The notes under the pieces are model-generated. The model was not told where the DNA came from. It worked only from the letters and a program-made list of their open reading frames with translations, and did no database searches. From Acidimicrobiia bacterium (lineage in GTDB: Bacteria; Actinomycetota; Acidimicrobiia; IMCC26256; PALSA-555), in the NCBI GenBank assembly GCA_009694295.1, contig SHVJ01000003.1, positions 1 to 54,674 of the forward strand: a stretch of DNA of 54,674 bases, written 5' to 3'. The first letter of the stretch is position 1, and every line of letters begins with the position of its first letter. Below are positions 1-32,278 of this stretch, one piece after another. The position numbers and the translations under genes were made by a program.

Positions 1-3000
1 GATCCGCTCGACCTCACGGATGACCACGCCGGCCTGGTCCCCCGCCTCAATCACGGCGTCGGATACTTCGGCCACTTCCACCGTCTTCACGGTCTTCTTC
101 TGTGTGGACAGCGGCTGACCCACCTTGCAGTTGTCGCGGTAGATGGCGACGGCCTTGAGGCCCAGCTTCCAAGCCTGCATGTGGATGTGCTCGATCTCTT
201 CGACTGTCGTCTCTTGTGGGGTGTTGATCGTTTTGCTAATTGCCCCCGAGATCCAGGGCTGCGCGGCGCCCATCATCTTCACGTGACCCATGTAGTGGAT
301 CGTGTTGTCGCCCATGGAGCAGGCGAACACGGGGAGGTGCTCCGGGTTGAAGTCCGGCGCACCGTCGAGCGTCTTGTGCTCGTTGATGTGCTGCACGATC
401 GCGTCGCCCTGCTCGTCGGTGTATCCGAGCTTGCGCAACGCACGCGGGATCGTCTGGTTGACGATCATCATCGTGCCGCCGCCCACGAGCTTCTTCGCCT
501 TCGTGAGCGCGAGGTCGGGCTCGATGCCGGTCGTATCGCAATCCATCATCAACCCGATGGTGTTGTGACTGACGAAGCCGTTGGCGACGTACGTGACGTT
601 CTCGGGCACAGACAAGTCGAACGTGAGCTCCTCGGCGCCGAGCTCGGCCGATGCGACAGTGTCGTAGAAAAAGCCGAGGAGGTGCAACAGCTCGGCGTCG
701 TTGGTGCGTTCGAACAGCTCGTTCGCGGAACGTCGCGACACCGTGCCGCGGGCCACCTCCATGAGCAGCACCTTGCGGAGGCGGTCGTTCGCGGGCGCGA
801 GCCGATCCACCAGCGCGCGGGTGACCGGGATGTAGTCCTTGCGCGCCGCCTGGCGTCCTTCGCTCCGAAGGACCTTGGCGTTCTTGCGGTCGCCGACGAA
901 CCCGATCTCTTCGAGCCAACGTGAGTGGTACGACGTGTTGAGGAGCCGCAGCACCGCCAGCGCCGACTGCCCCCACCCGGTGATGTCGAACTTGCGGGTC
1001 GTCGGGTAGCCGAGCGCGAGCAGCACCGTCTGGACGTCGTGCGAGAACTCGAGCGAAGTGGTGGACCAGTTCGGGATCCCCGAAGTGACCGTGCCGTCGG
1101 CCTCGAAGAGGCCGCGCACGAACGCGCCGTAGATCTCACGGTCGTTGGTGTGCAGCAGCGCGTCGGGGATGTGCGGCGTCCAGCCTTTGCCCGTGTGACC
1201 TTCGTGCGGCAGGCGCTTCGCGAAGCCACACGCCTCCCACCACTCGGTGAGTCGAACCGAGTGGAGAGCAACCTCCGTGTATCCCTGCTTCTGCGCGACG
1301 TGCGCTTGTAGCCCAAAGCACTCCTTGCCGAGCCGCGAGAGACGCTCGACGACGTCGAAGTCGCCATCGGCGACACAGAGACGGATACCTCTCGAGTGCA
1401 GAGAACCGTCGCCCATGAAGTAGCCGACGAGCTCGGCGAGCTCCGGCGTGACCGCGCGCGGCGCCCGCGCTTCCCACTCGCCGGTCCAGTACGCCTCCGG
1501 CAGCGGTGGCAACGTGACGGCTTGGGACTCACCCACTAGTTGGTCGAGCGCGAGCGGCACACGATCACCGGATCGCAGGTCGGCCAGGTGACGCCACACC
1601 CACGTACCGCTCTCATCGACAACCTTCACGCGATGCTTCGTGGTGCCGCGCAGGCGGTACCCGCGTGCGGTCGTGACATTGACGACGGGCTCGACGCCGT
1701 TCACGTAGAACTGCGTGGCCTCCCGCGCGCCGTCGTCGGTCTGGACGTCGATGCCGAGCGGCTGCCACTGGTCGCCGATCGGGTTTCCGAGTGAGCCGAG
1801 TCGCACAAGACCACGCGCGGTAGGCACAAGGCTCCCGCCAACGAGACATCCCGTAGGCGCGAGCACGGTTGCTTGCGAGTTGCGGACACCTTGGAACTCC
1901 GCCACCTCGATGGCCTCGTCCCACGAGCGCTGTGCCGCACCCAACAGGTTGGGAGGCACGAGCTCCTCGTCGATCTTGGCCACCTCAGCGCGGTGCATCC
2001 GCAACACGTTGAGCATGGCGTCTTCGTTCTCGGCGTAGCCCGCGAACGGGCCCATTCGGCCCGCCGTCTTGGCGCTGGTCGCGTACGCGTGTCCCGTCAT
2101 CAGCGCGGTGATCGCCGCGGCCCACGCCCGACCCTCGTCGGAGTCGTAGGGAAGGCCTTGCGCCATGAGCAGCGCGCCAAGGTTGGCGTAGCCGAGCCCG
2201 AGCTGGCGGAACTTGCGGCTGTTCTCACCGATCTTCTCGGTGGGGTAGTCGGCGTTGCCGACAAGGATCTCCTGCGCGGTGAACACGACCTCGACCGTCT
2301 GCTGGAACGCCTCGGTGTCGAAGTTGCCGTCCTCGTCGAGGTAGCGGAGCAAGTTGATGCTCGCGAGGTTGCAGGCGGAATTATCTAAGTGCATATATTC
2401 CGAGCACGGGTTGCTCGCGTTGATGCGACCCGTATTGGGCGCGGTGTGCCAGTGGTTGATCGTGGTGTCGAACTGCATGCCGGGATCGGCGCACTCCCAC
2501 GACGCCTCGGAGATCTGACGCATGAGGTCGCGCGCCTTCACCGTCTTGACCGGCTCGCCGGTCTTGACGGCCCGCAGCGCCCAATCGGCATCTTCTTCGA
2601 CCGCGCGCATGAAGTCGTCGGTGACCCGCACCGAGTTGTTGGCGTTCTGGTACTGGATCGAGTGGCTGTCGATGCCGTCGAGATCCATATCGAAGCCGGC
2701 GTCTTTCAGCGCGCGCGCCTTGCGCTCCTCACGCGCCTTGCACCAGATGAACTCTTCGATGTCGGGGTGATCGTCGTTGAGGATGACCATCTTCGCGGCG
2801 CGTCGGGTCTTGCCACCCGACTTGATCGTGCCGGCCGACGCGTCGGCGCCGCGCATGAAGCTCACCGGGCCGCTCGCGGTGCCGCCACCGGCGAGGCCCT
2901 CGTAAGACGAGCGGATGTTGGACAGGTTGATGCCCGACCCCGACCCGCCTTTGAAGATCGTTCCCTCTTCGCGGTACCAGTTGAGGATCCCGTCCATCGT

Positions 3001-4536
3001 GTCCTCAACCGCAAGGATGAAACAGTTGTGCACGCGCAGGTTGCCCGAGAGGTACTCGCCGCTCTCGGTCTGGATGTCGTAGACGTCCATCTCCCCGAGC
3101 TCTTCGATGCGCTTGATCTCGAGGCGCTTGACGTCGAGGGCAGGACGACCCGGCAGAGCGAACGTCGATTCGAGCTTCGATACCTTGCGCTCGTCGATGA
3201 ACCCGATCTCGTCGGCGAATCGACGCCGATCGCCCGCGACGCGGATCGACAACGACCAGCAGCCCTTGCGCGACTCACGTCGATCGGCTTTGAAACTCAC
3301 GCGGCCGTAGATCCCGAAGCGCAACAACAACGACTGCACACCGCGAACGATTCCTTCGGAGATCATGTCGAGACCCACAGTGGAGCCGTGCTCGCGCTGC
3401 GAAACGTAGCCTTCGGCCTGGAACACGCTCCGCAGGTATGCAGCGACGACCGGGAGGGGTGCAGTGAAGAGAAATGCCGGGACCTGCATATCGAGGCCGC
3501 GAGTCATGAGCCCCCACTTGTCGATGAATGGACGCAAGTGGTTCCCGTAAAGACGAAGGCGACGGCAGTCAAGCGTGGGGTCTTTGGTTTCGACAGTGCG
3601 CTCATGGCTGTGCGCGTCTCCAAAGACCTCGTCGACTGCCCAATTGACCCATGCGCGCTCGTCGTCGTTCACCGACATCGATTCGATGGTCAGCGATCGG
3701 TTGGTGCCTTCGTACTGGCCAACAAAGCCATCTGACTGCAACCATCCAGCGAGCGCGGCTTCGGCAATCTCGCGCGTGGTGATCTCGCCCGTACCCCACG
3801 ACTCGGTGCGGTGCCACTCGAGCTTGTCGTTCGGACGCAGCGTGCCGGCCTCGACGAACCGACCGGAACCCTGGCCTGTCGAACGCCAGACCAGGTGGTC
3901 GGGCGTCACGTCGAGCGTCATGCCCGCCTTGGTGTGGACGCGGAGCACTCGCTTCGTACCGTTGTGCTTGACGGCAACGATCTTCGTGATGCCATGCGCG
4001 TCGAACACCTTCGTGCCGACGGCGCGGTCTTCCACCAACTTGCCGATCGGTACAAGTCCTTCGGTCGTGCTGACGAGCGAGTCGTAGGGCTGGCACGCGC
4101 TCGCCTGCTGCGGCACACCTTTGACGCCGATGTTGAACCACACCGGACTGTTGAACGCCACTTGCTGGTGCACGAGCACGAACTTGAGCTCGTTGCGGAA
4201 CGCCGCGCCTTCCTGGTCATCGACGAAGTAGCCGTCGCGCATGCCCCACGCGGTGATCGTGTCGGCGACGCGGTCGATCACCTGACGCAGCGACCACTCG
4301 CGCTCGTCGGTGCCGAGGGTGCCACGGAAGTACTTCTGGGCGACGATGTTGGTGGCGTTCTGCGACCAGGCGACGGGGAACTCCACATCGGGCTGGTAGA
4401 ACGCGTCGGTCCCGTCCTTGAAGTTCTGGATGCGCGCCTCGCGCCGCTCCCACTCGACCGTGTCGTAGGGGTGCACTCCGGGCCGGGTGAAGTACCGACG
4501 GATCCCGATCCCGATCTGCTCTGGCGCGATCGCCAC
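1..4536 (-). CDS. nrdJ: Adenosylcobalamin-dependent (class II) ribonucleotide reductase with two inteins; 3' end runs off the window
   Basis: Manual translation from GTG at 4536 (GGAGG upstream): MAIAPEQIGIGIRRYFT...AFNSPVWFN...GGTASGPVSFM...SGGKTRRAAKM...NASNPCSEYMHLDNSACNLASINL...QLGLGYANLG...APTG/TIGLMMDCDTTGIEP...SGAISKTIN. Adjacent to nrdR. Absent from the ORF track because no stop falls inside the window. Confidence 0.96.
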   Translation of the reverse strand, partial: MAIAPEQIGIGIRRYFTRPGVHPYDTVEWERREARIQNFKDGTDAFYQPDVEFPVAWSQNATNIVAQKYFRGTLGTDEREWSLRQVIDRVADTITAWGMRDGYFVDDQEGAAFRNELKFVLVHQQVAFNSPVWFNIGVKGVPQQASACQPYDSLVSTTEGLVPIGKLVEDRAVGTKVFDAHGITKIVAVKHNGTKRVLRVHTKAGMTLDVTPDHLVWRSTGQGSGRFVEAGTLRPNDKLEWHRTESWGTGEITTREIAEAALAGWLQSDGFVGQYEGTNRSLTIESMSVNDDERAWVNWAVDEVFGDAHSHERTVETKDPTLDCRRLRLYGNHLRPFIDKWGLMTRGLDMQVPAFLFTAPLPVVAAYLRSVFQAEGYVSQREHGSTVGLDMISEGIVRGVQSLLLRFGIYGRVSFKADRRESRKGCWSLSIRVAGDRRRFADEIGFIDERKVSKLESTFALPGRPALDVKRLEIKRIEELGEMDVYDIQTESGEYLSGNLRVHNCFILAVEDTMDGILNWYREEGTIFKGGSGSGINLSNIRSSYEGLAGGGTASGPVSFMRGADASAGTIKSGGKTRRAAKMVILNDDHPDIEEFIWCKAREERKARALKDAGFDMDLDGIDSHSIQYQNANNSVRVTDDFMRAVEEDADWALRAVKTGEPVKTVKARDLMRQISEASWECADPGMQFDTTINHWHTAPNTGRINASNPCSEYMHLDNSACNLASINLLRYLDEDGNFDTEAFQQTVEVVFTAQEILVGNADYPTEKIGENSRKFRQLGLGYANLGALLMAQGLPYDSDEGRAWAAAITALMTGHAYATSAKTAGRMGPFAGYAENEDAMLNVLRMHRAEVAKIDEELVPPNLLGAAQRSWDEAIEVAEFQGVRNSQATVLAPTGCLVGGSLVPTARGLVRLGSLGNPIGDQWQPLGIDVQTDDGAREATQFYVNGVEPVVNVTTARGYRLRGTTKHRVKVVDESGTWVWRHLADLRSGDRVPLALDQLVGESQAVTLPPLPEAYWTGEWEARAPRAVTPELAELVGYFMGDGSLHSRGIRLCVADGDFDVVERLSRLGKECFGLQAHVAQKQGYTEVALHSVRLTEWWEACGFAKRLPHEGHTGKGWTPHIPDALLHTNDREIYGAFVRGLFEADGTVTSGIPNWSTTSLEFSHDVQTVLLALGYPTTRKFDITGWGQSALAVLRLLNTSYHSRWLEEIGFVGDRKNAKVLRSEGRQAARKDYIPVTRALVDRLAPANDRLRKVLLMEVARGTVSRRSANELFERTNDAELLHLLGFFYDTVASAELGAEELTFDLSVPENVTYVANGFVSHNTIGLMMDCDTTGIEPDLALTKAKKLVGGGTMMIVNQTIPRALRKLGYTDEQGDAIVQHINEHKTLDGAPDFNPEHLPVFACSMGDNTIHYMGHVKMMGAAQPWISGAISKTINTPQETTVEEIEHIHMQAWKLGLKAVAIYRDNCKVGQPLSTQKKTVKTVEVAEVSDAVIEAGDQAGVVIREVERI
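562..1848 (-). mobile_element. Intein 2 in NrdJ (429 aa) with LAGLIDADG homing endonuclease
   Basis: Interrupts the conserved APTG|TIG motif. Starts CLVGGSLV, ends YVANGFVSHN, +1 residue Thr. Internal motifs LVGYFMGDG and FVRGLFEADG. Confidence 0.93.
3025..4095 (-). mobile_element. Intein 1 in NrdJ (357 aa) with LAGLIDADG homing endonuclease
   Basis: Interrupts QASA|CFIL. Starts CQPYDSLV, has block B TPDH, ends YLSGNLRVHN, +1 residue Cys. Internal motifs LAGWLQSDG and YLRSVFQAEG. Confidence 0.93.
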
Positions 4537-8423: not shown

Positions 8424-9247
8424 GAACCAATCCCGTGGTCGCGGAGGATCTCGTTGAGCTTGGCCTTGTCGGACCGCTCGCCCTCTTCAAGGCGCTTCAT
8501 GATAAGAGCGCACGGAAGGTAGAACACGCCGCCGGGGAACGTACGGGGACGCATGGCCTGCACGACGATGCACCACGGCGGCACCACGCCCCGTCCGACC
8601 TCTTCACCGGTCTGGGCGTCGATCACCGGGATCCCCGGATTGAGGATCACGCCCTCACCGAGCACACTCCCCCGCCCGACGCGTGCGCCCTGCGTCACCA
8701 TGCTGCGTGAGCCGATAAGTGCGTCGTCCTCGATGATGACGGGCGCCGCTTGCGGGGGCTCGAGCACGCCGCCGATCCCGACGCCTCCCGAGAGGTGGAC
8801 GCGCTCACCGATCTGTGCGCACGACCCGACCGTGGCCCACGTGTCGACCATCGAGTCAGCGCCGACGCGAGCACCGATGTTCACGTAGCTCGGCATCAAG
8901 ATCACACCCGGGCCAAGGTATGAGCCCCAGCGCGCCGACGAACCCGGCACCGCGCGCACCTTCGCCTTCTCGTAGTTGTGCTTGAGCGGGATCTTGTCGG
9001 CGTACTCGAACGGCCCCAACTCGATGGTCTCCATCGTCGCGAAGCGGAACAGCAGCAAGATCGCTTGCTTGAGCCACTGGTGCACGACGACCTTGTCGTC
9101 GACGATCTCAGCGACCCGAGCCTCCCCGGTGTCGAGAAGGTCGATCGCCTCGTAGACGGCCACCTTGGCGTCCTCGGGTGACATCACCGACGCGATGTCG
9201 TCACGCGCGTCCCACGCTGCGGTGATCGTCTGGGCCAGATCGCTCAC
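8420..9247 (-). CDS. dapD: Tetrahydrodipicolinate N-succinyltransferase
   Basis: LLDTGEARVAE, WLKQAILL, DKIPLK, MPSYVNIGA, MVDTWATVGSCAQIG, HLSGGVGIGGVLEP, NEILR. Confidence 0.95.
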   Translation of the reverse strand: MSDLAQTITAAWDARDDIASVMSPEDAKVAVYEAIDLLDTGEARVAEIVDDKVVVHQWLKQAILLLFRFATMETIELGPFEYADKIPLKHNYEKAKVRAVPGSSARWGSYLGPGVILMPSYVNIGARVGADSMVDTWATVGSCAQIGERVHLSGGVGIGGVLEPPQAAPVIIEDDALIGSRSMVTQGARVGRGSVLGEGVILNPGIPVIDAQTGEEVGRGVVPPWCIVVQAMRPRTFPGGVFYLPCALIMKRLEEGERSDKAKLNEILRDHGIGS

Positions 9248-10410
9248 GTACTCGCCTCCAGTCGCTGCACGGTCAGATCGACGTGCTCGTCGGTGATGCT
9301 CAATGCCACTCGCACATGCTGGTCGCCGGCCGAGCCATACAGCGAACCCGGTGCCACGAGCAGCCCGGTCGCGGCCAAACGGGCGGCGATCGACCAACCA
9401 TCCTCGTTCCCGGCCGTGGACCGCAGCCACAGGTAGAACGCGGACGGACCGCCGTCGTTCACGAGACCCCACGCTTCGAGCGCGGGGGCACAACGCGCTC
9501 GACGGTCTGCGTACCGCGCTCGCTGTACGTCGACATGCGCGTCGTCGCCGAGCGCGGCGGCGGCTGCGGCCTGGACTGGGGCCGGCACCATCAAGCCTCC
9601 GTGCTTGCGCACCTCACCGAGGTACGTGACCAGCTCCGCATCACCCGCGACGAACCCGGCGCGAAGCCCGGCCATGTTCGACCGCTTCGACAGCGAGTGG
9701 ACGGCGAGCACGCGGTCAGTGGTCACCTGGAGCGCCGAGACCGGCGCGGCCGGGGCGCCGGACTCGTTGTACGTGAACTCGGCGTAACACTCGTCGCTCG
9801 CGACGATCGCGCCGTGCTCATGACCCCACTCGACGGACGCCCGCATCGATTCGGGCGTGGCGGTGACGCCGGTCGGGTTCGCCGGGTCGTTGAGCCACAG
9901 CAGGAGCGCTCGGACGGCATCATCCGGATCGACGGCGCTCAAGTCGGGACGCCACTTCTCGTCGACAGGCACGGGCACGGCTCTCAGCCCGGCCAGCTCA
10001 GCACCCATCGCGTACGTCGGATACGAAACGCCGGGGTACAGCACGGTGTCGCGCGACGGATCGCGCAGCGAGAGCATCCGTGGGAGCGACGCAACCACTT
10101 CCTTGGTGCCGATGCACGCCATCACCGACGAGGCCGGCAGGTCGACACCGAACCGTCGTTGGATCCACGCGGCCGCGGCCTCCCGGTACGCGAGCGAACC
10201 GATCGTGAACGGGTAGCCCGTGGACCCTGGCGCCGCATCGGAAAGGGCGCGCAGCACCAGGTCGGGCATCGGGTCGACCGGGGTGCCGATCGAGCTGTCG
10301 ACCATGCCCCCCGGTACTGCTGCAGCAACCTCTCTCAGATCAACGAGGCGATCATGCGGATATGGCGGCGGCACGAAGCCTTCCGGAGCCTGGGTTGCCA
10401 CGTTGGCCAC
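9244..10410 (-). CDS. dapC: N-succinyldiaminopimelate aminotransferase (class I/II PLP enzyme)
   Basis: SIGTPVDP, LNDPANPTG, ASDECYAE, HSLSKRSNMAGLRAGF; coupled to dapD. Confidence 0.88.
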   Translation of the reverse strand: MANVATQAPEGFVPPPYPHDRLVDLREVAAAVPGGMVDSSIGTPVDPMPDLVLRALSDAAPGSTGYPFTIGSLAYREAAAAWIQRRFGVDLPASSVMACIGTKEVVASLPRMLSLRDPSRDTVLYPGVSYPTYAMGAELAGLRAVPVPVDEKWRPDLSAVDPDDAVRALLLWLNDPANPTGVTATPESMRASVEWGHEHGAIVASDECYAEFTYNESGAPAAPVSALQVTTDRVLAVHSLSKRSNMAGLRAGFVAGDAELVTYLGEVRKHGGLMVPAPVQAAAAAALGDDAHVDVQRARYADRRARCAPALEAWGLVNDGGPSAFYLWLRSTAGNEDGWSIAARLAATGLLVAPGSLYGSAGDQHVRVALSITDEHVDLTVQRLEAST

Positions 10411-10411
10411 G

Positions 10412-11965
10412 CTACTCAGCGGCGTCTGCGACGAAGACGGGCACGCCACCGACCCAGGTCTCGGCCACGCGTGGCGGGTCGTACGCGTCGAGCGCGCCAT
10501 CCAAGATCACGAGATCGGCGCGCAGGCCCGGCGCGATCGAACCACGTTCGTGCTCCTGACCGCCCGCGTACGCGCTGCCCGCGGTGTACGCGTTCAGCCA
10601 CGCTTCGAAGTCGACGGCTTGATCGGGTTCGAATTCGTTGCCCGCATCCGTGGTCCGTGTCGTACCGCGGGCCGAGCACCACAAGGGTGGGAACGGCGCG
10701 CACGGATCGTCGGACGACGCCGCGAGCGCCACGCCCGCCTCGGCGAGCGTGGCGAACGGGAGCCACGCGTGCTCGTCGAACCTCACGCCGCCCGAAGAGT
10801 CGCCAACGTGGTCGACGAACCCAGGTTGCACCACCGCCACCGCTCCCAGCGCGGCAAGCGCCTGGCACTGCTCTCTGGACGCCACGCCGACGTGCTCGAT
10901 CCGGAACCGATGGTCCTCGTCAGGCATCGCCCGCCGCGCGGCAGCGAACGCTTCGATCGTGCGCTGCACGCCGACGTTGCCCATCGCGTGCACGCCAACC
11001 CGGTATCCACGCCGCGCTGCCTCGACGAGCCGCGGCTCGAGATCATCCATCGTGATCCCCATGAGCAGCCGTTGACCGTGTATTGCGACGTCGAGCGCGA
11101 TCGCGATGCCGCCGTCGGCAAAGAACTTCACGCCGCCGACCCGCACCGCCTCGTCGCCTTCTCCAGTCGCGGGACCATCGAGTCGGGACCCCACGTCGTT
11201 CGTGAGCAGCGCCGCGGAGTGCGGCATCGCGAGCACCGACAACGGAAGGCGCCGATCACGGGCCAGCCAGCGATAGAGGTCTTCACCCTCCGACGTGCAC
11301 GCGGCGTCGTGGATGGCAGTGATGCCGTGGCGCAGGAGGTTCGGGATGCGGGCGAGCACGTAGTCGCCCCAACGGTCGCGGTCGGTGAAGCCCGCCAGCG
11401 AGCGTGCATGCGCCTCGCTCCACGCTCGTTCGATCAGCAGACCGTTTGGCTCGCCGTCGGCACCTCGCCCCAGTTCACCACCAGCGGGGTCGGGCGCCCT
11501 GCGACCGATCTCCAGATCTTCCAGCCCACGACTGCACACCACGGCCTGATGCAGCGAGAAGTGCGCAACAACGATCGGTCGATCCAATTCCAGCGCATCA
11601 AGATCGTTGCGCGTCGGAGCGACACCGGTGGTGACCTCGTTCCAGCCGCACACTCGGATCCATTCGGCTTCCGGTTCAGCCGCGGCCTGCGCTCGCACGC
11701 CGTCGAGGAGTTCCTCCATCGATGTGACATGCGAGACGTCGTGCCACTGCGGGTGGAGCGCCGCGATCGAGAGGTGGTTGTGCGCGTCGATGAAACCAGG
11801 GACGAGGGTGTGGCCCGCGAGGTCGTGCACCTGCGCGTCCAGATGTGCGCTCAGGATTCCCCGCTCACCGACCGCCGCGATGCGGTCGCCGTCAACGATG
11901 ACGACATCGGGTGCCGGTCCCGGAGCCATCGTGAGTACGCGCCCGCCCGTAAACGCGTGTTTCAT
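10412..11965 (-). CDS. Amidohydrolase family 3 (YtcJ-like) protein
   Basis: LVPGFIDAHNH, VKFFADGG, HAMGN, RIEH, SSDDP, GSIAPGLRADLVILD. Confidence 0.88.
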   Translation of the reverse strand: MKHAFTGGRVLTMAPGPAPDVVIVDGDRIAAVGERGILSAHLDAQVHDLAGHTLVPGFIDAHNHLSIAALHPQWHDVSHVTSMEELLDGVRAQAAAEPEAEWIRVCGWNEVTTGVAPTRNDLDALELDRPIVVAHFSLHQAVVCSRGLEDLEIGRRAPDPAGGELGRGADGEPNGLLIERAWSEAHARSLAGFTDRDRWGDYVLARIPNLLRHGITAIHDAACTSEGEDLYRWLARDRRLPLSVLAMPHSAALLTNDVGSRLDGPATGEGDEAVRVGGVKFFADGGIAIALDVAIHGQRLLMGITMDDLEPRLVEAARRGYRVGVHAMGNVGVQRTIEAFAAARRAMPDEDHRFRIEHVGVASREQCQALAALGAVAVVQPGFVDHVGDSSGGVRFDEHAWLPFATLAEAGVALAASSDDPCAPFPPLWCSARGTTRTTDAGNEFEPDQAVDFEAWLNAYTAGSAYAGGQEHERGSIAPGLRADLVILDGALDAYDPPRVAETWVGGVPVFVADAAE

Positions 11966-24625: not shown

Positions 24626-24759
24626 CCGGACGATGCTACCGGGCGGTCTTCCGTGCTCTCCCAGCGCCGACGCGGGCCGATGAGTCGCTGTCGCCGTGTC
24701 TGATGTCCCGGCACCCACCAAGTGGTGGACGCGCTACCCCGACGTTCCCAGTCAGGCCA

Positions 24760-25290
24760 CTAGTTCTGGTCGCCGTGGGCCACGTCGCCGTGCCCACTGT
24801 CGGCGTGGTCGTTGTGGGCCGCGGTGTCGACGTGGGCGGCGTCGCCGTGCGCGACGTCGATGTGGCCGCCTGGGATGTCAAAGTGGAACGGGGGCGAACC
24901 GGTGTCTAAATGGCCGAAGTTGTTCACGTCGACGTGCGCAGTGTTGACCAGCGGGGTGTCGAAGTGAGGGATGTCGTTCGTCGTGTCAAGGTGTGCGGTA
25001 TCGACGTGCGCGGTGTCGTTGTGCGGCGCGTCGTTGTGCGGCGCGTCGTCGTGCGCGGCGGTGGTGGTCGTCGTGCCACTCGGATTCGCGGCGTCGGTGT
25101 GATCGGCGTGCGAGGCGTCCGTGTGGGCGCCGCCGCACGCGGCGAGGAGGCCACCAAAGCCGAGTGCGACCGGGAGCGTCGCTCCGGCCTGGAGCAGCTC
25201 CCGCCGAGAGAACTGGCGCCGACGGGCGGCGTGCTCCTCGTCCTCGGACGGCAAGGTCGCGTCGTCGTCGTCGCGAGCGTCAGGACTCAT
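24760..25290 (-). CDS. Tat-signal lipoprotein with 19 His-x-Asp repeats; putative substrate of the adjacent rSAM enzyme and methyltransferase
   Basis: ATG at 25290 with GGGGGAG upstream; acidic N-terminus, FSRRELL, hydrophobic stretch, LAAC lipobox, then HTD/HAD/HND/HVD/HLD/HFD/HID/HGD repeats; 176 aa. Confidence 0.85.
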   Translation of the reverse strand: MSPDARDDDDATLPSEDEEHAARRRQFSRRELLQAGATLPVALGFGGLLAACGGAHTDASHADHTDAANPSGTTTTTAAHDDAPHNDAPHNDTAHVDTAHLDTTNDIPHFDTPLVNTAHVDVNNFGHLDTGSPPFHFDIPGGHIDVAHGDAAHVDTAAHNDHADSGHGDVAHGDQN

Positions 25291-26842
25291 CGCCGTCTCC
25301 CCCCAGGAATGTGTCCGGGACTGTAGCGAGCGCGGCCGGCTCGTGCTGGGAGCCGGCCACCGAGAGGCCGGCCTCGCGGGCGAGGGCCTGGAGGCCGCCG
25401 GCCCGGTCGAGCCAGTCGCCGTATGCGTAGACGAGGACCCGGTCGCAGTGGTCCCGCAGCCGCGCACGGAGCGCGGCGGCCCGGTCGGGGCCGATCTCCA
25501 GCAAACGGCCTGGCATGACGAGGGCGAGGGCGAAGCGCCCCGGGTCCGACCACAGATCGTGGTCGGCGAAGAGGTCGCCCACCACGAAGTGCTCGGCGGT
25601 GTCGGGGTGCAGGGCCCGGGCGTGCTCGATGCGGGCGTGCTCGAGGTCGATCCCGAAGGGAACGACGCCCGGCGCGGCCGCCGTGAGCTTCTCGAGGAGG
25701 GCGCCGTTGCCGCAGCCGAGGTCGAGCACGTTGCCGCCCCGGCGCCCGAGCGCGGCCGCGGCCGCCTCGACGACCGGGCGGTGCGCATCGTTCATGGCGG
25801 CGATCGACGGGAACCCGTTGTCGGTCGCGTACCACGCGGCTCGGGCGCGGCCCTGCGGCTCGGCCGCGTGCTCGAGACCCCGCCGGAACCCGCGGCTGGC
25901 GCTGAGACGCAGCTTCACCGGCACCCGGAACGGCGGGCCCAGGCCGTGTGCGCCCTCGGCCGGGAACCCGGTGCCCTCGCGCCGCACCACATAGCGTCCT
26001 GCGGTCGCGTCGGTACGGGTCGACACCTTGAGCACGGGCGTCTTCACCTCGGCGATGCCGTGCAGCGCTGACCACTCCACCGGCCAAGAGAGGACCTCGA
26101 GGAGCCAGTCCATCTCCTCGCCGAAGCCGGCGTCGCGCCCGACCCTCACGAGCGCGTCGGCGAACTCGACGGTCGGCGGGCAGTCGAAGCGGCACGGGAG
26201 GTGCGGGACAGCTCGCGCGCCCATCCAGCGCCAGAGGATGTTCGCCTGCGGCGGGCCCGCGACCTCGATGGTCGTGGTCCCGTCGAGCGAATCGGTGCTG
26301 GCCACCGCCATGGGCCACGTGGTGTCGACCATCGCGTCGTCGACCCACACCCGGCGGAAGAATTCGCGACAGCAGGCCGGGTAGCCGAGCAGGTCGCCGA
26401 TCGTCTCGTCGTCGCCGGCCTCCCACGCGCGCTTGAACGTCGCCACGTCGTCGATCGCACCCACGACGAAGCGGAACACGAACGGTTGGCCCGGCTCGGC
26501 CGAGACGGGTGTGGCCGAGTACGGCTGCCCCGAGACGCCCATCATCTCGATTGGCATCGCGCTGAGGCCGACGTCGGCCCAACGCGTTGCCTCGGTGAGG
26601 AACTCCTCGGGCGACGTGGTCGCGATCGCACAGCGCCGGACGCCGGCCGCCACCGCGCGCCACTCGATCTCGAGCCACGCCGCGGTGATGCGGGTCAGCC
26701 GGGGTTGCCACGCGTCGCGGGCCGCGTCGCTGACCCATGCCACCCGGGTGAAGTCGGGGAGCCGGAAGTCGAGCTGCTCCATCGAGCGGGTCGCCGCCGG
26801 CGCGGTGTTGGGACCGGGCGGCGCGAGCTGGAGGTCAGGCAT
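25280..26842 (-). CDS. Fusion of a Cys-motif N-terminal domain and a C-terminal class I SAM-dependent methyltransferase
   Basis: N-terminal LLGYPACC and HLPCRFDC motifs; C-terminal NVLDLGCGNG, FGIDLE, VVGDLF. Overlaps both neighbouring genes. Confidence 0.85.
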   Translation of the reverse strand: MPDLQLAPPGPNTAPAATRSMEQLDFRLPDFTRVAWVSDAARDAWQPRLTRITAAWLEIEWRAVAAGVRRCAIATTSPEEFLTEATRWADVGLSAMPIEMMGVSGQPYSATPVSAEPGQPFVFRFVVGAIDDVATFKRAWEAGDDETIGDLLGYPACCREFFRRVWVDDAMVDTTWPMAVASTDSLDGTTTIEVAGPPQANILWRWMGARAVPHLPCRFDCPPTVEFADALVRVGRDAGFGEEMDWLLEVLSWPVEWSALHGIAEVKTPVLKVSTRTDATAGRYVVRREGTGFPAEGAHGLGPPFRVPVKLRLSASRGFRRGLEHAAEPQGRARAAWYATDNGFPSIAAMNDAHRPVVEAAAAALGRRGGNVLDLGCGNGALLEKLTAAAPGVVPFGIDLEHARIEHARALHPDTAEHFVVGDLFADHDLWSDPGRFALALVMPGRLLEIGPDRAAALRARLRDHCDRVLVYAYGDWLDRAGGLQALAREAGLSVAGSQHEPAALATVPDTFLGGDGDES

Positions 26843-28079
26843 CGCCGTGCGGGACGTCGCCGTGCGGCGCGTCGCCGTGCTCCACGTCACCGAGCGGCGC
26901 GCCGACGGCCGTCGACTCGTGCTGCTCGGCCATCCAGCGCTTGACGCCGGCGATCGAGGTCGTCTGACCCGCCGCCCAGAGCTCGAGGAAGGCCGCTTCT
27001 ACGTCGGCGCGCTCGGGGCTCGCGGAGAGCGGGACCTCGCCGGCGTCGAGAAGTTGCTCCTCCAGGCCGCGAAAGAGACCCTTCCAGAGGTCGCAGTGCT
27101 CGGTGCGGTTGCGCCAATCACCGTCGATCGCGGTGCCGGGGCACTGGCCCTTGCACATGAGAAAGAAGCGGCACCCCGAGCACCCGCCGTGCTCCTGGGG
27201 CGTGGCGTAGAGGGCGAGGTAGCGCTCGAAGCCCTCGACCGGCGCCTTCACGAAGTCGATGCCGTCCTTGTTGGTGCGCCCGCAGTTGCTGGCCTGGCCG
27301 TAGCCCTCCACCCCGCGCACGGCGCGGGTCGTGTACGGGTCGCACGCATTCCACACGCACGTGGTTTGGTCGTCGGTGCCGCGTAGGAGGTTGCGCATGT
27401 CGTCGAACACGTCGAGGCGCAGCGTGGTGAGGTCGGCTTCGAGTCTCGCGAAGCTTGTGAACGCGGCCATGTTCTCTTCGGGAGTGAGCGCGTAGGCGGC
27501 GCCGACGTCGTCGCTCTCAACTTCGAGGGCATGGAGGCGTGCGTTCCTGATGCCCATCGCCTGCAGGCGCCGCAACCAGTCGTGCATCGTCGGCAGTGCC
27601 GCACCGGTGGCGTTGCCGCGGTGCAGCGTGATGATGAGGCTCGGCGGGGTACCTTCGCCGCAGAGTCGCTCGATCGCGGCTTCCGCCTTGGCCGTCGCCT
27701 CACGGGTGCGCTCGAGCGTGCCGGCCCAGCGCGCGTCGTTCAACTCGCCGGGGCCGTCGATCGAGATGCCGACATCGACCTTGTACTGGCGGAACATGCG
27801 GGCGTGCGCGTCGTTGATGAGCACGCCGTTGGTCTGAATGCTGTTCGACCCGTACCGCTCGAGGCCCCAGGCCAACAGGTCCTCAAGGTCGGCCTCCGGC
27901 ACCAACAGCGCCTCGCCACCGAAGAGCGTGAACGGGCCGCCCTCGCGCTCGACCGCGGCCTTCATCGCGTCGAGGTCGTAGGAACGCGGGACGTTGCCCG
28001 CGTCGCGTTGGGGGTTCTGGTAGCAGTACTGGCACTGGATGTTGCACGCGACACCCAGCGGCCGGAGCTCGACGCTCAC
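26835..28079 (-). CDS. Radical SAM/SPASM-domain protein with C-terminal HGD repeats
   Basis: CNIQCQYC, FGGEALL, IQTNG, ISIDGP; SPASM cysteines CVWNAC, NC, CSGC-x5-C-x3-C-x15-C; tail EHGDAPHGDVPHGDA. Confidence 0.93.
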   Translation of the reverse strand: MSVELRPLGVACNIQCQYCYQNPQRDAGNVPRSYDLDAMKAAVEREGGPFTLFGGEALLVPEADLEDLLAWGLERYGSNSIQTNGVLINDAHARMFRQYKVDVGISIDGPGELNDARWAGTLERTREATAKAEAAIERLCGEGTPPSLIITLHRGNATGAALPTMHDWLRRLQAMGIRNARLHALEVESDDVGAAYALTPEENMAAFTSFARLEADLTTLRLDVFDDMRNLLRGTDDQTTCVWNACDPYTTRAVRGVEGYGQASNCGRTNKDGIDFVKAPVEGFERYLALYATPQEHGGCSGCRFFLMCKGQCPGTAIDGDWRNRTEHCDLWKGLFRGLEEQLLDAGEVPLSASPERADVEAAFLELWAAGQTTSIAGVKRWMAEQHESTAVGAPLGDVEHGDAPHGDVPHGDA

Positions 28080-28261
28080 TGAGTCCTCGCGCCCTGGTTG
28101 TGCATGTCGTCCCCCACCGCACGGCCACTCGCCTGCGGACCCGATGTGTCGGCACGGTACGCCAGGCAACGAGCACCCGCAACACGGCCGGTGACCAGAC
28201 GGCGGCATGCAGAGTCCTCCGAGCATCCCGCCGCGTCGCCCAGCGTTCGTACACTGCTTGC

Positions 28262-28726
28262 ATGACTGACGGCCCAACGGTGTGGTGCCCATCGTGCGGT
28301 GCCGAGTATGTGGCGGGCGTGCCGTACTGCGCCGATTGCCGCGTGGCCCTCGTGGCCGACCAACCCAGTCGACTCTCACCCACGCCCACGCCCACGTCGA
28401 CCGACGACGGCGAGCTCGTTGCCATCGGCGCGTGGCCGCGCCTTTCGGCGCAGATCCTGCGCGCCCGGCTCGAGACCGCGGGCATCTCGGTGATGGCCGA
28501 GTGGACGGGTCCGGGCGCCGACGCGCTCGGCACGCTCGTGGTGCCGGCGGAGCAACGCGAGTTCGCAGAAGCCGTCGTCCACGAGCTCGACGTTGCCGAC
28601 GAGGTTCCCGACACGTCGCCCTTCGCCTACGTGGTCCGCATCGAGGAGCACCTATCTGTCGCCGCCGAGCTCCTCCAAGAGCTCCGCACGAAGCTCGACG
28701 AGCTCGAAGCCCGCGGCCTCCTCTAA
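28262..28726 (+). CDS. Zinc-ribbon protein with DUF2007-like putative signalling domain
   Basis: WCPSCGAEY...CADCRVALV, then AQILRARLETAGI...LVVPAEQREFAEAVV. Confidence 0.7.
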   Translation: MTDGPTVWCPSCGAEYVAGVPYCADCRVALVADQPSRLSPTPTPTSTDDGELVAIGAWPRLSAQILRARLETAGISVMAEWTGPGADALGTLVVPAEQREFAEAVVHELDVADEVPDTSPFAYVVRIEEHLSVAAELLQELRTKLDELEARGLL

Positions 28727-28733
28727 ACCCCGG

Positions 28734-29324
28734 TCAGACCGCGGCGCGTTGGGCGTTGCGGAGGGCCGATTCCACCAGGAGCACGAGGGTCTCTTGCACG
28801 TGGGTCTTGCGCCGGACGTCGCACAGGACGATCGGGATGTTGGCTGGGACCGCGAGCGCTTCACGCACAGCTCGCGGATGGTGCGTGGCGACACCATCGA
28901 ACATGTTGACGGCGACAACGAACGGGATGCCGAGCGCCTCGAAGTAGTCGACCGCGGCGAAGCACTCGGCGACGCGCCGCGTGTCCACGAGCACAACGCC
29001 ACCGACCGCACCGCGCACGAGCTCGTCCCACAGGAACCAGAAGCGGTCCTGGCCCGGCGTGCCGAACAGATACAGCACCATGTCGGGTCCAAGCGTGATC
29101 CGCCCGAAGTCCATCGCGACTGTCGTACCCGTCTTGCCCATCTGGCCCGACCGGTCGACGCCGAGGCTCTCGACCGTCATCTCGGCTTCGGTGCGCAGCG
29201 GCTCGATCTCGGAGATCGACCCTATCAACGTGGTCTTCCCCACTGCGAAGCCACCGGCCACCACGATCTTCATGGCGACGGGCGCGGCGGAGACCCGCGC
29301 GTGGTCAAAGAGCGCGGATGCCAT
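28734..29324 (-). CDS. Conservon small GTPase (CvnD/MglA-like)
   Basis: KIVVAGGFAVGKTT, TTVAMDFGRI, LFGTPGQDRFWFLWD. Confidence 0.92.
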   Translation of the reverse strand: MASALFDHARVSAAPVAMKIVVAGGFAVGKTTLIGSISEIEPLRTEAEMTVESLGVDRSGQMGKTGTTVAMDFGRITLGPDMVLYLFGTPGQDRFWFLWDELVRGAVGGVVLVDTRRVAECFAAVDYFEALGIPFVVAVNMFDGVATHHPRAVREALAVPANIPIVLCDVRRKTHVQETLVLLVESALRNAQRAAV

Positions 29325-29676
29325 CAAGCAGCCTTTCGAGCAGACGGGTGTCGGTCGCCGACTCGACCGTGTGCGGGTCGTCGACCGCGACGACGCCGGC
29401 CGTCGCGAGATCGTCCACGAGCACGCGCACGACTCCGACGGGGAGGAACAGGCGCGCCGCGACCTCAGCCACCGACATCGTGGGCCGACACAGCTCGACG
29501 ATGCGTTGCGACTCCGGCGGCGCGCCAGGAGGGAACGCACCGGGTTCGGTGAGCGCGCGCACACCGGCCTCGAGCGCCATCAGCGGGCCCGGGACCTTCG
29601 TACGGCCACGCGTGAGCACATAGGGCCGGACCAGGCGTGGATGTTGCCCCGGTACTCGGCGGTCGTTCGAACCCAT
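29305..29676 (-). CDS. Conservon DUF742 protein (CvnC)
   Basis: LVRPYVLTRGRT, SVAEVAARLFLPVGVVRVLVDDL, LLERLLDGIRAL. Confidence 0.92.
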   Translation of the reverse strand: MGSNDRRVPGQHPRLVRPYVLTRGRTKVPGPLMALEAGVRALTEPGAFPPGAPPESQRIVELCRPTMSVAEVAARLFLPVGVVRVLVDDLATAGVVAVDDPHTVESATDTRLLERLLDGIRAL

Positions 29677-30098
29677 CACCGCGGCAGCGCGGTCTGGAGC
29701 TCGGCGACGAGCGCGGGCGTCAGCGCGGCCGCGCAACGCTCGACGAGTACCGCCATCTCGTAGCCAACGAGCCCAACGTCGCACGGACGCGATGCCGCCA
29801 CCGCGAGCACCGACGTCTCGCTGACGCTCATCACGAACAAGATCACGCGTTCGAGCTCGACGATGACTTCGTGCACCGCACCGCCATCGAGCGGTCCCGA
29901 CGAGCCGCGGGCGATGCTCTGGAGACCAGCGGCCACGGCAGCGAGGCGGTCGGCGGCAACGCGGTCGATGCCGTCCGACATGGCCACGAGCAACCCGTCG
30001 GACGAGACGACTGCGGCCTGGGTCACACCGGGAATGCCCGCCACGAAGTTCGTGACGAGCCAGTTCAAGTTGCGGGCTTCAGAGCTGAGCTTGATCAC
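29676..30098 (-). CDS. Conservon roadblock/LC7 protein (CvnB/MglB-like)
   Basis: LNWLVTNFV, AVVSSDGLL, ADRLAAVAAGL, DVGLVGYEMAVLV. Confidence 0.92.
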   Translation of the reverse strand: MIKLSSEARNLNWLVTNFVAGIPGVTQAAVVSSDGLLVAMSDGIDRVAADRLAAVAAGLQSIARGSSGPLDGGAVHEVIVELERVILFVMSVSETSVLAVAASRPCDVGLVGYEMAVLVERCAAALTPALVAELQTALPR

Positions 30099-32278
30099 GA
30101 CGCACCCTTGCCATGACCGTCGCGCTTCCCGCGCTCGTGACGACTCAACATGTCGTGCACGCTCTCGGGTCGGGGCCGCACTTCGCCCGTCGCCGACGCG
30201 GCATCGCTCGGCTGATGGGTGAGGTGCGTGCCCGGCACCCGCGCCGTGAGCCCATTGCCGTTGCCATTGCCGTTGCCGTTGCCGTTGGTGACGCTGTTCG
30301 CCGACACCGCGGCCGCTTCGTGGGTGAAGGGTGCGGTCGCCACACCGACGGCCACTGGCTCACGCTCGAGTTCCGAGCTCGGCGCCTTGATCACCGCGGC
30401 CGCATCCGGTTGCGGTTCGGGCGTCGCCGTAGGTTCGGTTGCGGGTGCTTCGTGGCTGGATGCAAGCAAGGTCGGTGGCAGCACGACGAGCGCGGTCACG
30501 CCGGTCGGTGACGCCGACCGAAGCTGCACATGGATGCCGTGGCGCGCCGCGAGATGCGCCACCACGTGGAGGCCGAGCGTGCGCGAGAGCGCAAGGCCCG
30601 GTGCGGGCGGCCGTGCGAGCAGCGCGTTGGCTCCTGCGATGCGCGGCTCGTCCATTCCGATGCCCCGGTCGGTCACGCCGATCACGAAGCGCTGGTCGAG
30701 CATGCGCCCGCCCACCGTCACCGGCGTCTCCGGCGGCGAGAAGGCGGTGGCATTCTCCAACAGCTCGGCCACGAGGTGCGTCAGGTCGGCAACCGCGTGA
30801 CCGACGACCGCAACATCACCTTCGAAGCCGTGGGCGTGCAGACGGGCGAAGTCGGCGATCTCGGCTGCCGCGGCGCGCACCACGTCGACGACCGGTACCG
30901 ACGCGCCCCAATGCCGCGGCTGCTCCGCGCCCGACAACACGAGCAAGCTCTCGGCGTTGCGACGCATCCGGGTGGCGAGATGGTCGAGCTCGAACAGCGA
31001 GGCAAGCTCGTCGGGATCGGCCGACGCCTCGAGGTCGTCGATCAGCGAGATCTGCCGGTCGAGCAGACTCTGATTGCGACGGGCGAGGTTCACATAGAGG
31101 TCGCCGATGCCCTTCTTGAGGAACTCCGACTGCTCACGCGCGACGGTGACCGTCACCTCTTGGATCGTGTTGAACGCTTTCGCGAGCTCACCGATCTCGT
31201 CCTTCGATTCCACCTGGATCGGCGAGAGGTCGCCGAGCGCGTCGGCCTCGAGGTCGCCGCCGCGATGCAACGTATCGATGAGCAGTGGAAGCCGTCGTTC
31301 CGACACTTCACGCGCACTGCGCGTCAACGCGCGCAGCGGCTTGCTTACTGAGTGCACCAACGCCCAGATGAGCATCAGCGCCATCCAGATGACCGCGGCG
31401 GTACCGAGGGCAACGACGATGGCCACACCGCGGGTTTCGGACTGTCGATTGTCGGCCTCGGCATTCACGACGTCCTGGACGGCGGCAACTCCTTGGTCGG
31501 TCGCGGCCTGCTTGCCTTCGTAGACCTTGCGGTACTCCGCGGCCGTGGTCGTCACGCTCGGGAACGAGGTGGGAAGCGCCGACCCGACGGCAGCACGTAC
31601 CGGGTCCTTCGGGACGTTGATCGTGCCTCTCAGCTCGTACGCGCCACGTTCCGCGGCGCTCGAGGTCTCTGCGAACAATCGCGCCTGCGCGCGCTGCTCG
31701 GTAATGGCGGTGATCCACCGCGTGACGTCGGGGCTCGCTCCCATGAGATGCTCGGTAACGACCGTCGCCTCTTGTGCAACCGCAAGCTGCTGCCGACGGA
31801 GGTCGACGATGACCAACAGGCTCGTGGCCAACGTGCTGTCCTCGGCTTCGCGCGCGACGCGCGCAGCCGCGTCGAGCGCGGACGCGCCGATCGCGGTGAG
31901 CCGCAGCGATCCTTCGGAGCCCTCGAACAGATGGTTCGCCACGTCGCTCACGGCCCGCCGGGTGCGGTCGCTCACATTTCCTGCCAGCTGTGGCAGATCG
32001 GCGTTCAGCGCAGTCGCTATGGCCTCGGTGTCGTGACGGGCTGAGTTGAGATCTGCGGAAGATGCTTCGGGATTCGCCGTCACCACGGCCTCATCGCCGA
32101 CGATTCGGGCTACCTGAGTCAGCGTCTCGAAGGGCCCGACCAGGCTGGCGTACTGCTCCTCAGCGGCGAGCGCGTCGAAACGCTCCTTGATGGTGAAGCC
32201 GGCGAACCCCACGAGCACGAGCAGGGGCACGCTGACGACGAGGACCAGCCTCGTCCGAAACGGCAGCTTGCGCAGCAA
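30095..32278 (-). CDS. Conservon membrane sensor kinase-like protein (CvnA): TM, helical sensor, HAMP, HATPase
   Basis: Two TM segments, DEIGELAKAFN, NLARRNQSLLDRQ, LFELDHLATRMRRNAESLLVL, ELLENATAFSPP, DRGIGM, LGLHVV. Confidence 0.92.
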   Translation of the reverse strand: MLRKLPFRTRLVLVVSVPLLVLVGFAGFTIKERFDALAAEEQYASLVGPFETLTQVARIVGDEAVVTANPEASSADLNSARHDTEAIATALNADLPQLAGNVSDRTRRAVSDVANHLFEGSEGSLRLTAIGASALDAAARVAREAEDSTLATSLLVIVDLRRQQLAVAQEATVVTEHLMGASPDVTRWITAITEQRAQARLFAETSSAAERGAYELRGTINVPKDPVRAAVGSALPTSFPSVTTTAAEYRKVYEGKQAATDQGVAAVQDVVNAEADNRQSETRGVAIVVALGTAAVIWMALMLIWALVHSVSKPLRALTRSAREVSERRLPLLIDTLHRGGDLEADALGDLSPIQVESKDEIGELAKAFNTIQEVTVTVAREQSEFLKKGIGDLYVNLARRNQSLLDRQISLIDDLEASADPDELASLFELDHLATRMRRNAESLLVLSGAEQPRHWGASVPVVDVVRAAAAEIADFARLHAHGFEGDVAVVGHAVADLTHLVAELLENATAFSPPETPVTVGGRMLDQRFVIGVTDRGIGMDEPRIAGANALLARPPAPGLALSRTLGLHVVAHLAARHGIHVQLRSASPTGVTALVVLPPTLLASSHEAPATEPTATPEPQPDAAAVIKAPSSELEREPVAVGVATAPFTHEAAAVSANSVTNGNGNGNGNGNGLTARVPGTHLTHQPSDAASATGEVRPRPESVHDMLSRHERGKRDGHGKGAS

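Follow-up and report, generated by a model that had tools for sequence, protein, structure and literature searches.

The DNA analysed here (the window) is a 54,674-nucleotide stretch (positions 1 to 54,674) of contig SHVJ01000003.1 from an Acidimicrobiia bacterium (assembly GCA_009694295.1), and the subject of this work is a three-gene module on its reverse strand. In co-directional order the module encodes a radical S-adenosylmethionine (SAM)/SPASM enzyme, a partner protein that we call X and, last, a small protein dominated by His-x-Asp (HxD) units, referred to below as the precursor. An earlier note on this DNA had read the precursor as a lipoprotein of the twin-arginine translocation (Tat) pathway that is modified in the cytoplasm, exported and retained on the cell surface. 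Our analysis sets it within a family of enzyme, X and HxD protein that extends across bacteria to an archaeon and to phages. The module and its parts are as follows.

24760..25290, minus strand: HxD-repeat precursor, 176 aa (translation, motif count, dN/dS, GC content at third codon positions (GC3), Shine-Dalgarno-like run)
25138..25290, minus strand: predicted Tat/lipoprotein signal region, precursor residues 1-51 (sequence, 20-row alignment, TIGR01409 match of 12.1 bits)
25201-25206, minus strand: codons of the RR pair (sequence)
25135-25137, minus strand: codon of the lipobox Cys52, at the end of LAAC (sequence)
24763..25134, minus strand: mature His/Asp array, 19 HxD units with variable spacers and three 15-nt tandem arrays (motif count, repeat analysis)
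25280..26782, minus strand: protein X, 500 aa, with a conserved MEQLDF start (methyltransferase domains, invariant columns, AlphaFold 2 (AF2) model)
25856-26782, minus strand: N-domain of X, with P-x-C-C, P-C-x3-C and W-S-x-L-H-G invariant (alignment)
~25283-25780, minus strand: C-terminal class I SAM methyltransferase part of X (Pfam/NCBIfam domains)
26835..28079, minus strand: radical-SAM/SPASM enzyme, GTG start at 28079 (CNIQCQYC and eight further invariant Cys)
26838..26891, minus strand: C-terminal tail of the enzyme with three HGD units (..EHGDAPHGDVPHGDA) (translation)

The precursor frame is a real gene, because it is under purifying constraint relative to its closest ortholog (dN/dS 0.25; dN 0.19, dS 0.75; 154 codons) and has a GC3 of 0.86. 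That ortholog lies at locus L001, on a contig of the same-genus genome G001. By codon position the GC content is 0.73/0.48/0.86, similar to that of the two upstream genes, and the overlapping plus-strand open reading frames (ORFs) lack this coding pattern. The run GGGGGAG, which resembles a Shine-Dalgarno sequence, stands 7-8 nt before the ATG, and the stop codon of X overlaps that ATG by 11 nt. Among the 15 sequencing runs that contain the stretch, those with a large share of its words are labelled as freshwater metagenomes, those with a small share carry no information on habitat, and none of the 15 is listed as an RNA run.

After Cys52 the mature part comprises 124 residues, chiefly D (21), A (19), H (19), T (15) and G (11). 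The earlier note had placed every mature His in an HxD motif, and the count bears this out: all 19 have Asp at +2, and 19 of the 21 Asp lie inside HxD. The sole His before Cys52, H20, stands outside such a motif. When the mature part was shuffled with its composition preserved, none of 100,000 shuffles reached 19 HxD (maximum 11). The frequent five-residue period described before is also present: 9 of 18 gaps between successive His have this length, those of the run HDDAP-HNDAP-HNDTA-HVDTA-HLD among them, and in the DNA the period shows up as three short tandem arrays of 15-nt units (2.6-4 copies). The degenerate in-register unit LVN (HFDTP-LVNTA-HVD), likewise reported earlier, lies in a segment that is absent from the L001 ortholog. 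The earlier interpretation had been staked on conservation of the repeats at the protein level, and they are conserved, as H-x-D only: at the dN/dS of 0.25 given above, H and D are retained in the ortholog and the middle residue varies (HND to HSD, HFD to HAD, HVD to HSD).

Arrays of this density are rare in the organism's own genome. It is a 2.1-Mb metagenome-assembled genome (MAG) of 64.5% completeness, in which 3 of 27,908 stop-to-stop segments hold at least five HxD per 60 aa. The precursor is one of these, with 10, and the other two (6 and 5 HxD) are Arg-rich and off-frame-looking. A word-indexed search of 5.8 billion protein clusters returned a single relative of the precursor, P0001, which is 40% identical and keeps the RR pair, the Cys and the HxD array.

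The enzyme belongs to the radical-SAM/SPASM class. Across 30 sequences the cysteines of its CX3CX2C motif (C19, C23 and C26) are invariant, as are C248, C253, C273, C307, C310, C316, C320 and C336, which include the SPASM pattern C-x2-C-x5-C-x3-C, and Pfam Radical_SAM matches it with 43.2 bits. Its best matches in NCBIfam (release 20) are AmcB, a cyclophane-forming family, with 63.9 bits and the anaerobic sulfatase-maturating enzymes (anSME) with 61.8 bits, followed by DynA, YhhB, GrrM/OscB, PapB, XyeB, DarE and FxsB. By sequence, the closest solved structures are anSME (4k36, E 7.8e-11) and the triceptide synthase ChlB. None of the three module proteins reaches an NCBIfam model.

The partner X is less readily placed. 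For its first ~300 residues no Pfam family lies above threshold, with a faint match to DUF483 only. Foldseek with the N-domain gave 0 matches against the PDB at E<=1e-3, the best partial one being to 2guk, a 111-aa protein without an assigned function; a profile search of PDB sequences returned nothing meaningful, and the ESM Atlas returned no usable match for the N-domain. The AF2 model of X is confident, with a pLDDT of 90.8 and a pTM of 0.85, and full-length X retrieves methyltransferases only, through its C-terminal domain. Over 33 sequences, the N-domain positions R13, P135, C137, C138, C197, C201, W237, H241 and G242 are invariant, and the four Cys and the His among them suggest a metal or cluster site. 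The names given to X in the source records go no further than "class I SAM-dependent methyltransferase" and "hypothetical".

When 1.84 billion representatives (clusters at 50% identity) were searched with a profile, 2791 relatives of X were recovered at E<=1e-3 and 1006 at E<=1e-30. They occur as stand-alone proteins of ~300 aa, as methyltransferase fusions of ~500 aa and as fusions with the radical-SAM enzyme of 710-914 aa; the last are represented by P0141, P0192 and P0242 from the profile search and by loci L028 and L014, and they point to a coupling of the enzyme with X. A complex prediction for the enzyme, the N-domain of X and precursor residues 1-80 scored 0.12 against a mark of 0.32, which speaks neither for nor against binding. 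A distant relative of X was also seen on a plasmid of the haloarchaeon Halomicrococcus (H4, NZ_CP100467.1 43041-43817; 25.7% identity, 80% query coverage).

Related loci were fetched via the enzyme, and the best 80 of 113 relative-encoding stretches (131 candidates; 56-93% identity) were compared. Their phylum-level labels, about 15 in number and taken from record titles, cover Acidimicrobiia and other Actinomycetota, Acidobacteriota, Cyanobacteria, Chloroflexota, Gemmatimonadota, Planctomycetota, Armatimonadota, Nitrospira, Rokubacteria, Pseudomonadota, Bacteroidota, Bacillota (Paenibacillus, Cohnella), Myxococcota, SAR324 and a Nitrososphaeraceae archaeon. A homolog of X follows the enzyme in 78 of these loci. 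An HxD-dense ORF, by the same measure of at least five HxD per 60 aa, lies within the fetched flanks of 62, to be set against a background of two other such segments in the whole 2.1-Mb genome of our organism. Clustering of flank ORFs over the 80 loci gave no fourth widely conserved gene and likewise no conserved dedicated protease or transporter; this greedy clustering is noisy in high-GC loci, where many clusters are antisense, and was used for the fourth-gene question only.

Repeat statistics were drawn from 80 repeat regions in 61 loci. In these, 1467 of 1553 His have Asp at +2, 1467 of 1653 Asp lie in HxD, and Glu makes up 1% of the residues. The regions were defined by their HxD runs, and the informative part is therefore the scarcity of other His and of Glu. 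T, G, S, V and A account for most middle residues, His is most often preceded by Pro, and the spacing is at least 3 and most frequently 5 (377 of 1387 gaps).

The neighbouring HxD proteins take several forms: (a) RR-leader proteins, in Actinomycetota, Chloroflexota, Vicinamibacterales, Gemmatimonadota, Planctomycetia, Chthonomonas and a cyanobacterium; (b) leaderless HxD peptides of 65-95 aa, in loci labelled Acidobacteriaceae or Bryobacterales; (c) an HxD array followed by a coiled-coil-looking tail, as in the archaeal protein; (d) large proteins (1000-2000 aa) that end in an HxD tail and are encoded directly upstream of the enzyme; and (e) an HxD tail on the enzyme itself. Tails of the last kind (2-6 HxD) occur in 15 of the 80 loci, as well as in the window and in both phage enzymes described below, and may represent a tethered substrate or pseudo-substrate. 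In the L001 enzyme the tail (3190-3274) has 5 or 6 APHGD repeats.

The large proteins of form (d) include L016 326-5893, L021 2749-5961, L026 580-5988, L044 1044-5225, L072 2-5944 and L078 1032-5192, among others, and are without a signal peptide. Pfam and NCBIfam matched only a Laminin_G_3 domain (L016) and a TafC-like fimbrial stretch (L072) in their bodies, and the ESM Atlas, searched with one of them, returned only unnamed "hypothetical protein" clusters. Between the large protein and the enzyme some loci encode a further protein of ~240 aa (L044 5250-5969, Cohnella; L078 5214-5948, Paenibacillus; L067 7434-8135, SAR324), with a weak match to the CdtB family of the nuclease/phosphatase fold (30.7 bits against a cut-off of 189). 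At L011 3882-5109 and L014 8463-9606 a small PqqD-like ORF (a RiPP recognition element, where RiPP denotes a ribosomally synthesised and post-translationally modified peptide) and an HPr-kinase-like P-loop ORF were noticed by eye beside the module.

The module also occurs in viruses. Among 50,697 phage records, relatives of X were found in three, all of them Thermus phages. In phiMa (L087 1694-4921) a 343-aa HxD protein, gp29, is followed by the enzyme and then by X. All 53 His of gp29 lie in HxD, the enzyme (2845-3981) carries an HxD tail, and X is without the methyltransferase part. The gp29 gene stands directly after two baseplate-PHROG genes and before an M23-type lysin; the N-terminal ~95 aa of its product contain repeated GRPGSVW(I/V)(D/E)G motifs. 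In phiLo (L088 2924-5436) the enzyme (2924-4372) has a long tail with 9 HxD among 16 His, and no HxD-rich protein was found among the seven annotated coding sequences translated from its 4.5-kb flanks. The phages show that an HxD protein can do with the enzyme and X as its only module partners.

In the window the module is a self-contained insertion of ~4 kb. Twenty genomes of relatives were compared, four of them from the same genus. In one of these four, G002 (100% complete), the flanking order is kept (histidine kinase, roadblock, DUF742 and GTPase, then rimO, pgsA and cinA), the matches to the GTPase gene and rimO are ~50 nt apart, and the insertion site is empty. In the window ~4 kb lie between the same two genes and hold a zinc-ribbon gene, the enzyme, X and the HxD gene. 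A homolog of X was found in only 1 of the 20 genomes and not in G002, which, together with the empty site, is consistent with the three genes having been gained or lost together. The insertion spans ~24722-28733 of the window, the counterpart in G002 being L085 (G002:C15) 8717-10727. The remaining gene inside it is

28262..28726, plus strand: divergent zinc-ribbon protein, inside the insertion (weak zinc-ribbon match)

This protein has a CPSCG...CADC motif and a C-terminal part without assignment, and weakly matches the NCBIfam zinc-ribbon (seleno)protein DG model. It was rejected as a module member: a homolog occurs in 0 of the 80 loci and it is absent from L001, where the GTPase gene of G001 directly abuts the enzyme. 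On one side the insertion is flanked by a conservon-like operon (histidine kinase, roadblock/LC7, DUF742-like protein and small GTPase; window 28734-32278, minus strand), and on the other by recA, cinA, pgsA and rimO. G001 has two rimO matches (G001:C26:2-1252 and G001:C23:5717-7045); the copy adjoining the HxD module has two in-frame stops (TAG and TAA), and the intact copy is on a separate contig from the module.

The acidic N-terminus (MSPDARDDDDATLPSEDEE...), the SRRELL motif, the hydrophobic stretch and the LAAC that the earlier note had listed are all in the translation. SRRELL occupies residues 28-33 (F-S-R-R-E-L-L, 27-33; context R-R-R-Q-F-S-R-R-E-L-L-Q-A-G), and 21 uncharged residues follow the RR motif, up to and past Cys52. 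The lipobox L-A-A-C52, followed by G-G, fits [LVI][ASTVI][GAS]C at the end of the h-region. In an alignment of 20 precursors, including those of the window and P0001, RR is invariant, R23, F27, A35, G36 and P40 are nearly so, and the leader core reads R-x-x-x-F-[ST]-R-R-x-L-[LI]-x-A-G-x-x-x-P.

It had been asked of homologous precursors whether they keep both RR and Cys. The RR pair does persist, in 20 of 20, but the lipobox Cys is found in 9 of 20, all Acidimicrobiia-type. Among the 80 loci, RR leaders occur in 25 precursors from 22 loci and the lipobox in 7 loci, again all Acidimicrobiia-type; RR leaders of other phyla lead instead to A-x-A-type sites (ASAQ, AFAQ, AAAQ). The lipobox Cys is a clade-specific add-on and not a feature of the system, because elsewhere the HxD protein has an RR leader with an A-x-A site, is leaderless, or is a large protein that ends in an HxD tail. 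Judged by these motifs, the Tat-lipoprotein form belongs to one clade, within an HxD maturation system of much wider spread. For the machinery itself, Lgt is present in the organism's own genome (223 bits) and TatC in all 20 relatives, including 4 of 4 from the same genus. On the motif evidence we consider Tat export and lipidation of this precursor probable.

Most of the loci pair the enzyme and X with HxD. We consider the HxD unit likely to be the site of modification, since no feature other than HxD is shared by all the neighbouring proteins and since exact i/i+2 pairing with Asp, and not Glu, would be unneeded for plain metal binding. We favour, with a probability of roughly 60%, a scheme in which the HxD protein is the substrate of the three-gene module, is modified in the cytoplasm, is exported by Tat and is anchored by lipid. 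In this scheme the radical-SAM/SPASM enzyme and X would modify each H-x-D unit in the cytoplasm, and the modified protein would leave through Tat by means of its SRRELL leader. Cys52 would then be lipidated and the protein held on the outer face of the membrane, as a stiff, protease-resistant His/Asp chain that may act as a multivalent metal binder. The proposed order of modification, Tat export and Lgt/Lsp action at Cys52 is suggested because radical-SAM enzymes are cytoplasmic and the precursor has an RR leader and a lipobox. Modification before export is the natural reading of an operon-like module with a radical-SAM/SPASM enzyme, and the lack of a conserved dedicated protease or transporter fits the use of general export pathways. 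The sequence of events in the earlier note is thus partly supported, by the motifs and the module, for this clade, and does not carry over to the whole system, in which RR plus Cys is a clade-specific form.

The likeliest chemistry would be a three-residue crosslink of the triceptide type, joining the imidazole carbon of His (His-C2) to the C-beta of Asp. According to the available text of one source, triceptide enzymes act on aromatic-x-x triplets and join the ring of the first residue to the C-beta of the third, and HaaB (HAA), YhhB (HNR) and HtkB (HTK) do so through His-C2 (PMC11499958). By analogy with these, the crosslink is a serious candidate here, although we would put it at somewhat short of even odds. 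On chemical reasoning, the crosslinked unit would place an imidazole nitrogen and the carboxylate of Asp so as to form a six-membered chelate, and would stiffen the chain. Metal binding by the HxD protein, suggested by its composition, is a tentative proposal.

Several observations weigh against the scheme of cytoplasmic modification and Tat export. The Tat model TIGR01409 scores the window protein at 12.1 bits against a cut-off of 16.7, and PF10518 does not match it; the earlier designation as a Tat lipoprotein thus keeps its RR-type motif and its lipobox, both retained in the nearest relatives, but falls short on the model score. TatC and LspA were not found in the organism's own genome, the 64.5%-complete MAG. 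In the cyanobacterial loci L011 and L013 the open frames run ~150 residues upstream of the RR segment, and if these residues are translated, the RR segment there is not an N-terminal signal. By eye, the upstream residues (L011 5248-5832 and L013 5125-5889, minus strand) look conserved between the two. In 18 of the 80 loci no HxD-dense ORF was found in the fetched flanks; one of them, L009, is a contig of 3 kb, and another, L011, encodes an RR-leader protein with only two HxD. The enzyme lies below every curated family cut-off (AmcB 63.9/425, YhhB 51.6/445, GrrM/OscB 46.4/310, XyeB 34.2/450, FxsB 31.8/370) and scores about equally against anSME (cut-off 349), which performs a different reaction. 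Finally, leaderless HxD peptides exist, so the leader is not needed for recognition. The suggestion that the signal region doubles as an enzyme-recognition leader accordingly meets evidence of both kinds: it fits the unusually extended conservation of the leader, but the leaderless peptides speak against it, and we would word it only as something the signal region may do.

The strongest competitor keeps the substrate and changes the chemistry: the enzyme and X might modify HxD at the beta-carbon of Asp or His, by epimerisation, or in a reaction completed by the methyltransferase (N-methyl-His or an Asp methyl ester). The enzyme's match to anSME, whose reaction oxidises a beta-carbon, is as good as that to the cyclophane synthases, and the closest solved structure is an anSME; X, with no known fold and with four invariant Cys and a His, could be a second catalyst. 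The radical-SAM-matured protein HxsA is reported, in the accessible part of its description, to carry an unexplained +8 Da instead of -2 Da (PMC13128918). The methyltransferase is fused to X in 37 of the 78 loci with X, but it is absent in 36 (5 are undecidable) and from the phage copies, and its reaction therefore cannot be the core one. Strict pairing at i/i+2 between an aromatic and an unvarying third residue is, moreover, what marks triceptide substrates. We consider such other chemistry unlikely, though well worth keeping in view.

A second alternative leaves the modification aside and concerns the leader: RR and the hydrophobic segment might serve mainly for enzyme recognition or as a membrane anchor, so that the protein stays at or in the membrane or exits otherwise. 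This would account for conservation beyond the needs of Tat (R23, F27, A35, G36 and P40, across phyla), and the long upstream frames of L011 and L013 and the sub-threshold Tat models point the same way. It sits poorly, however, with the lipobox Cys or A-x-A-type sites that follow the segment, which make sense only for cleaved signals, and with the RR at positions 29-30 and the short, weakly hydrophobic h-region, which are typical of a Tat signal. On balance this alternative appears improbable.

Still less probable is that the precursor is an unmodified His/Asp-rich, metal-binding Tat lipoprotein, a sponge or chaperone, with the enzyme acting elsewhere. His and Asp are classical metal ligands, and the export and lipidation motifs are present, but simple metal binding requires neither the near-absence of Glu nor the exact spacing, and adjacency to the enzyme pair is the only trait common to the HxD proteins of the various phyla, the phage and the archaeon. 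The enzyme also bears its own HxD tail, and the empty site of G002, where X was not found, is consistent with joint gain or loss of the three genes.

An envelope anti-phage or inter-phage system, in which the HxD protein would hit incoming phage particles or DNA, is suggested by analogy with HXS, whose radical-SAM-matured periplasmic effector has H-x-S repeats in the text available to us (PMC13128918), and by a patchy module that is inserted like an accessory island and carried by phages, but it is highly improbable: PADLOC yielded nothing more specific than generic similarity to viperin and to methyltransferases, the strongly acidic HxD arrays contrast with HxS repeats, for which a basic, DNA-binding character is described, the phiMa HxD gene at a tail-fibre position suggests a structural role, and no HxsD-like gene is present.

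The scheme of an HxD substrate modified in the cytoplasm and then exported has relatives among known systems. With the triceptides it shares a radical-SAM/SPASM enzyme and repeated aromatic-x-x triplets, in which His is a known first residue (PMC11499958, in its accessible text), and the best NCBIfam matches of our enzyme include cyclophane families, with ChlB among its solved relatives. It differs in an enzyme below all family cut-offs, in Asp at position 3 and arrays of 6-84 units, neither of which is mentioned in the portions of the literature examined, in the obligatory partner X, and in substrates that range from 65-aa peptides to 2000-aa proteins and include Tat lipoproteins and a phage protein. 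With anSME it shares the radical-SAM plus two-auxiliary-cluster SPASM architecture and action on a protein before export; but the target of anSME is a single Ser or Cys, which it oxidises within a sulfatase motif, a sulfatase is lacking here, and the score of 61.8 bits is far from the cut-off of 349.

The HXS system (HxsA-D), as far as the available text describes it, also combines a repeat protein of the form H-x-(small polar), maturation by cytoplasmic radical-SAM enzymes and a function in the envelope; its HxsA is a basic, peptidoglycan-binding protein with five HxS repeats, and 99.7% of the systems are in Pseudomonadota (PMC13128918). Here, in contrast, 19 acidic HxD units replace five HxS, and one radical-SAM enzyme with X stands in place of two radical-SAM enzymes with HxsD. 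HxsB and HxsC models do not occur among the best 25 of the 46 NCBIfam matches of our enzyme.

The earlier note had also set the proposed product apart from a normal RiPP, a contrast that now has precedents from 2024-2026: in bufferins, DAG-RiPPs and HxsA, modification in the cytoplasm is followed by export or lipidation, and signal peptides are used in all three. In the accessible portions of their sources, bufferins are metal chelators exported after modification in the cytoplasm (PMC11626156), and DAG-RiPPs are RiPP-lipoprotein hybrids that use the lipoprotein pathway (PMC13056109). Both resemble the present case in having a signal-peptide precursor, cytoplasmic modification and then a general export or lipoprotein pathway. 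They are described there with MNIO enzymes, Cys motifs and signals for signal peptidases I and II (SPI/SPII), whereas here we find a radical-SAM enzyme, HxD and an RR-type signal. Neither "twin-arginine" nor "radical SAM" occurs in the available text of the DAG-RiPP paper (PMC13056109). We found no description of HxD repeats with a radical-SAM enzyme in the open literature; subscription papers and supplements, which might list the enzyme cluster, were outside the scope of that search.

Extending the scheme to the whole family, one may picture the enzyme and the new-fold X crosslinking every HxD, and the resulting rigid, poly-chelating chain being displayed as a Tat lipoprotein, secreted, borne on large surface proteins, or placed at the baseplate of a Thermus phage; this wider view is speculative, and we hold it rather doubtful as a whole. 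If HxD maturation by the enzyme and X is borne out, the three-letter code H-x-D would mark a large substrate family for one highly conserved enzyme pair, with ~1000 clusters of X (50% identity, E<=1e-30) in bacteria, an archaeon and phages. Radical-SAM peptide chemistry would gain a new residue pair and its partner proteins a new fold, and the system would provide a radical-SAM example of a RiPP-like product that takes the Tat and lipoprotein pathway. With only three genes in the module, co-expression would be an easy test, and the finding would offer a testable idea of how microbes may build stiff, possibly metal-binding polymers on their surfaces.

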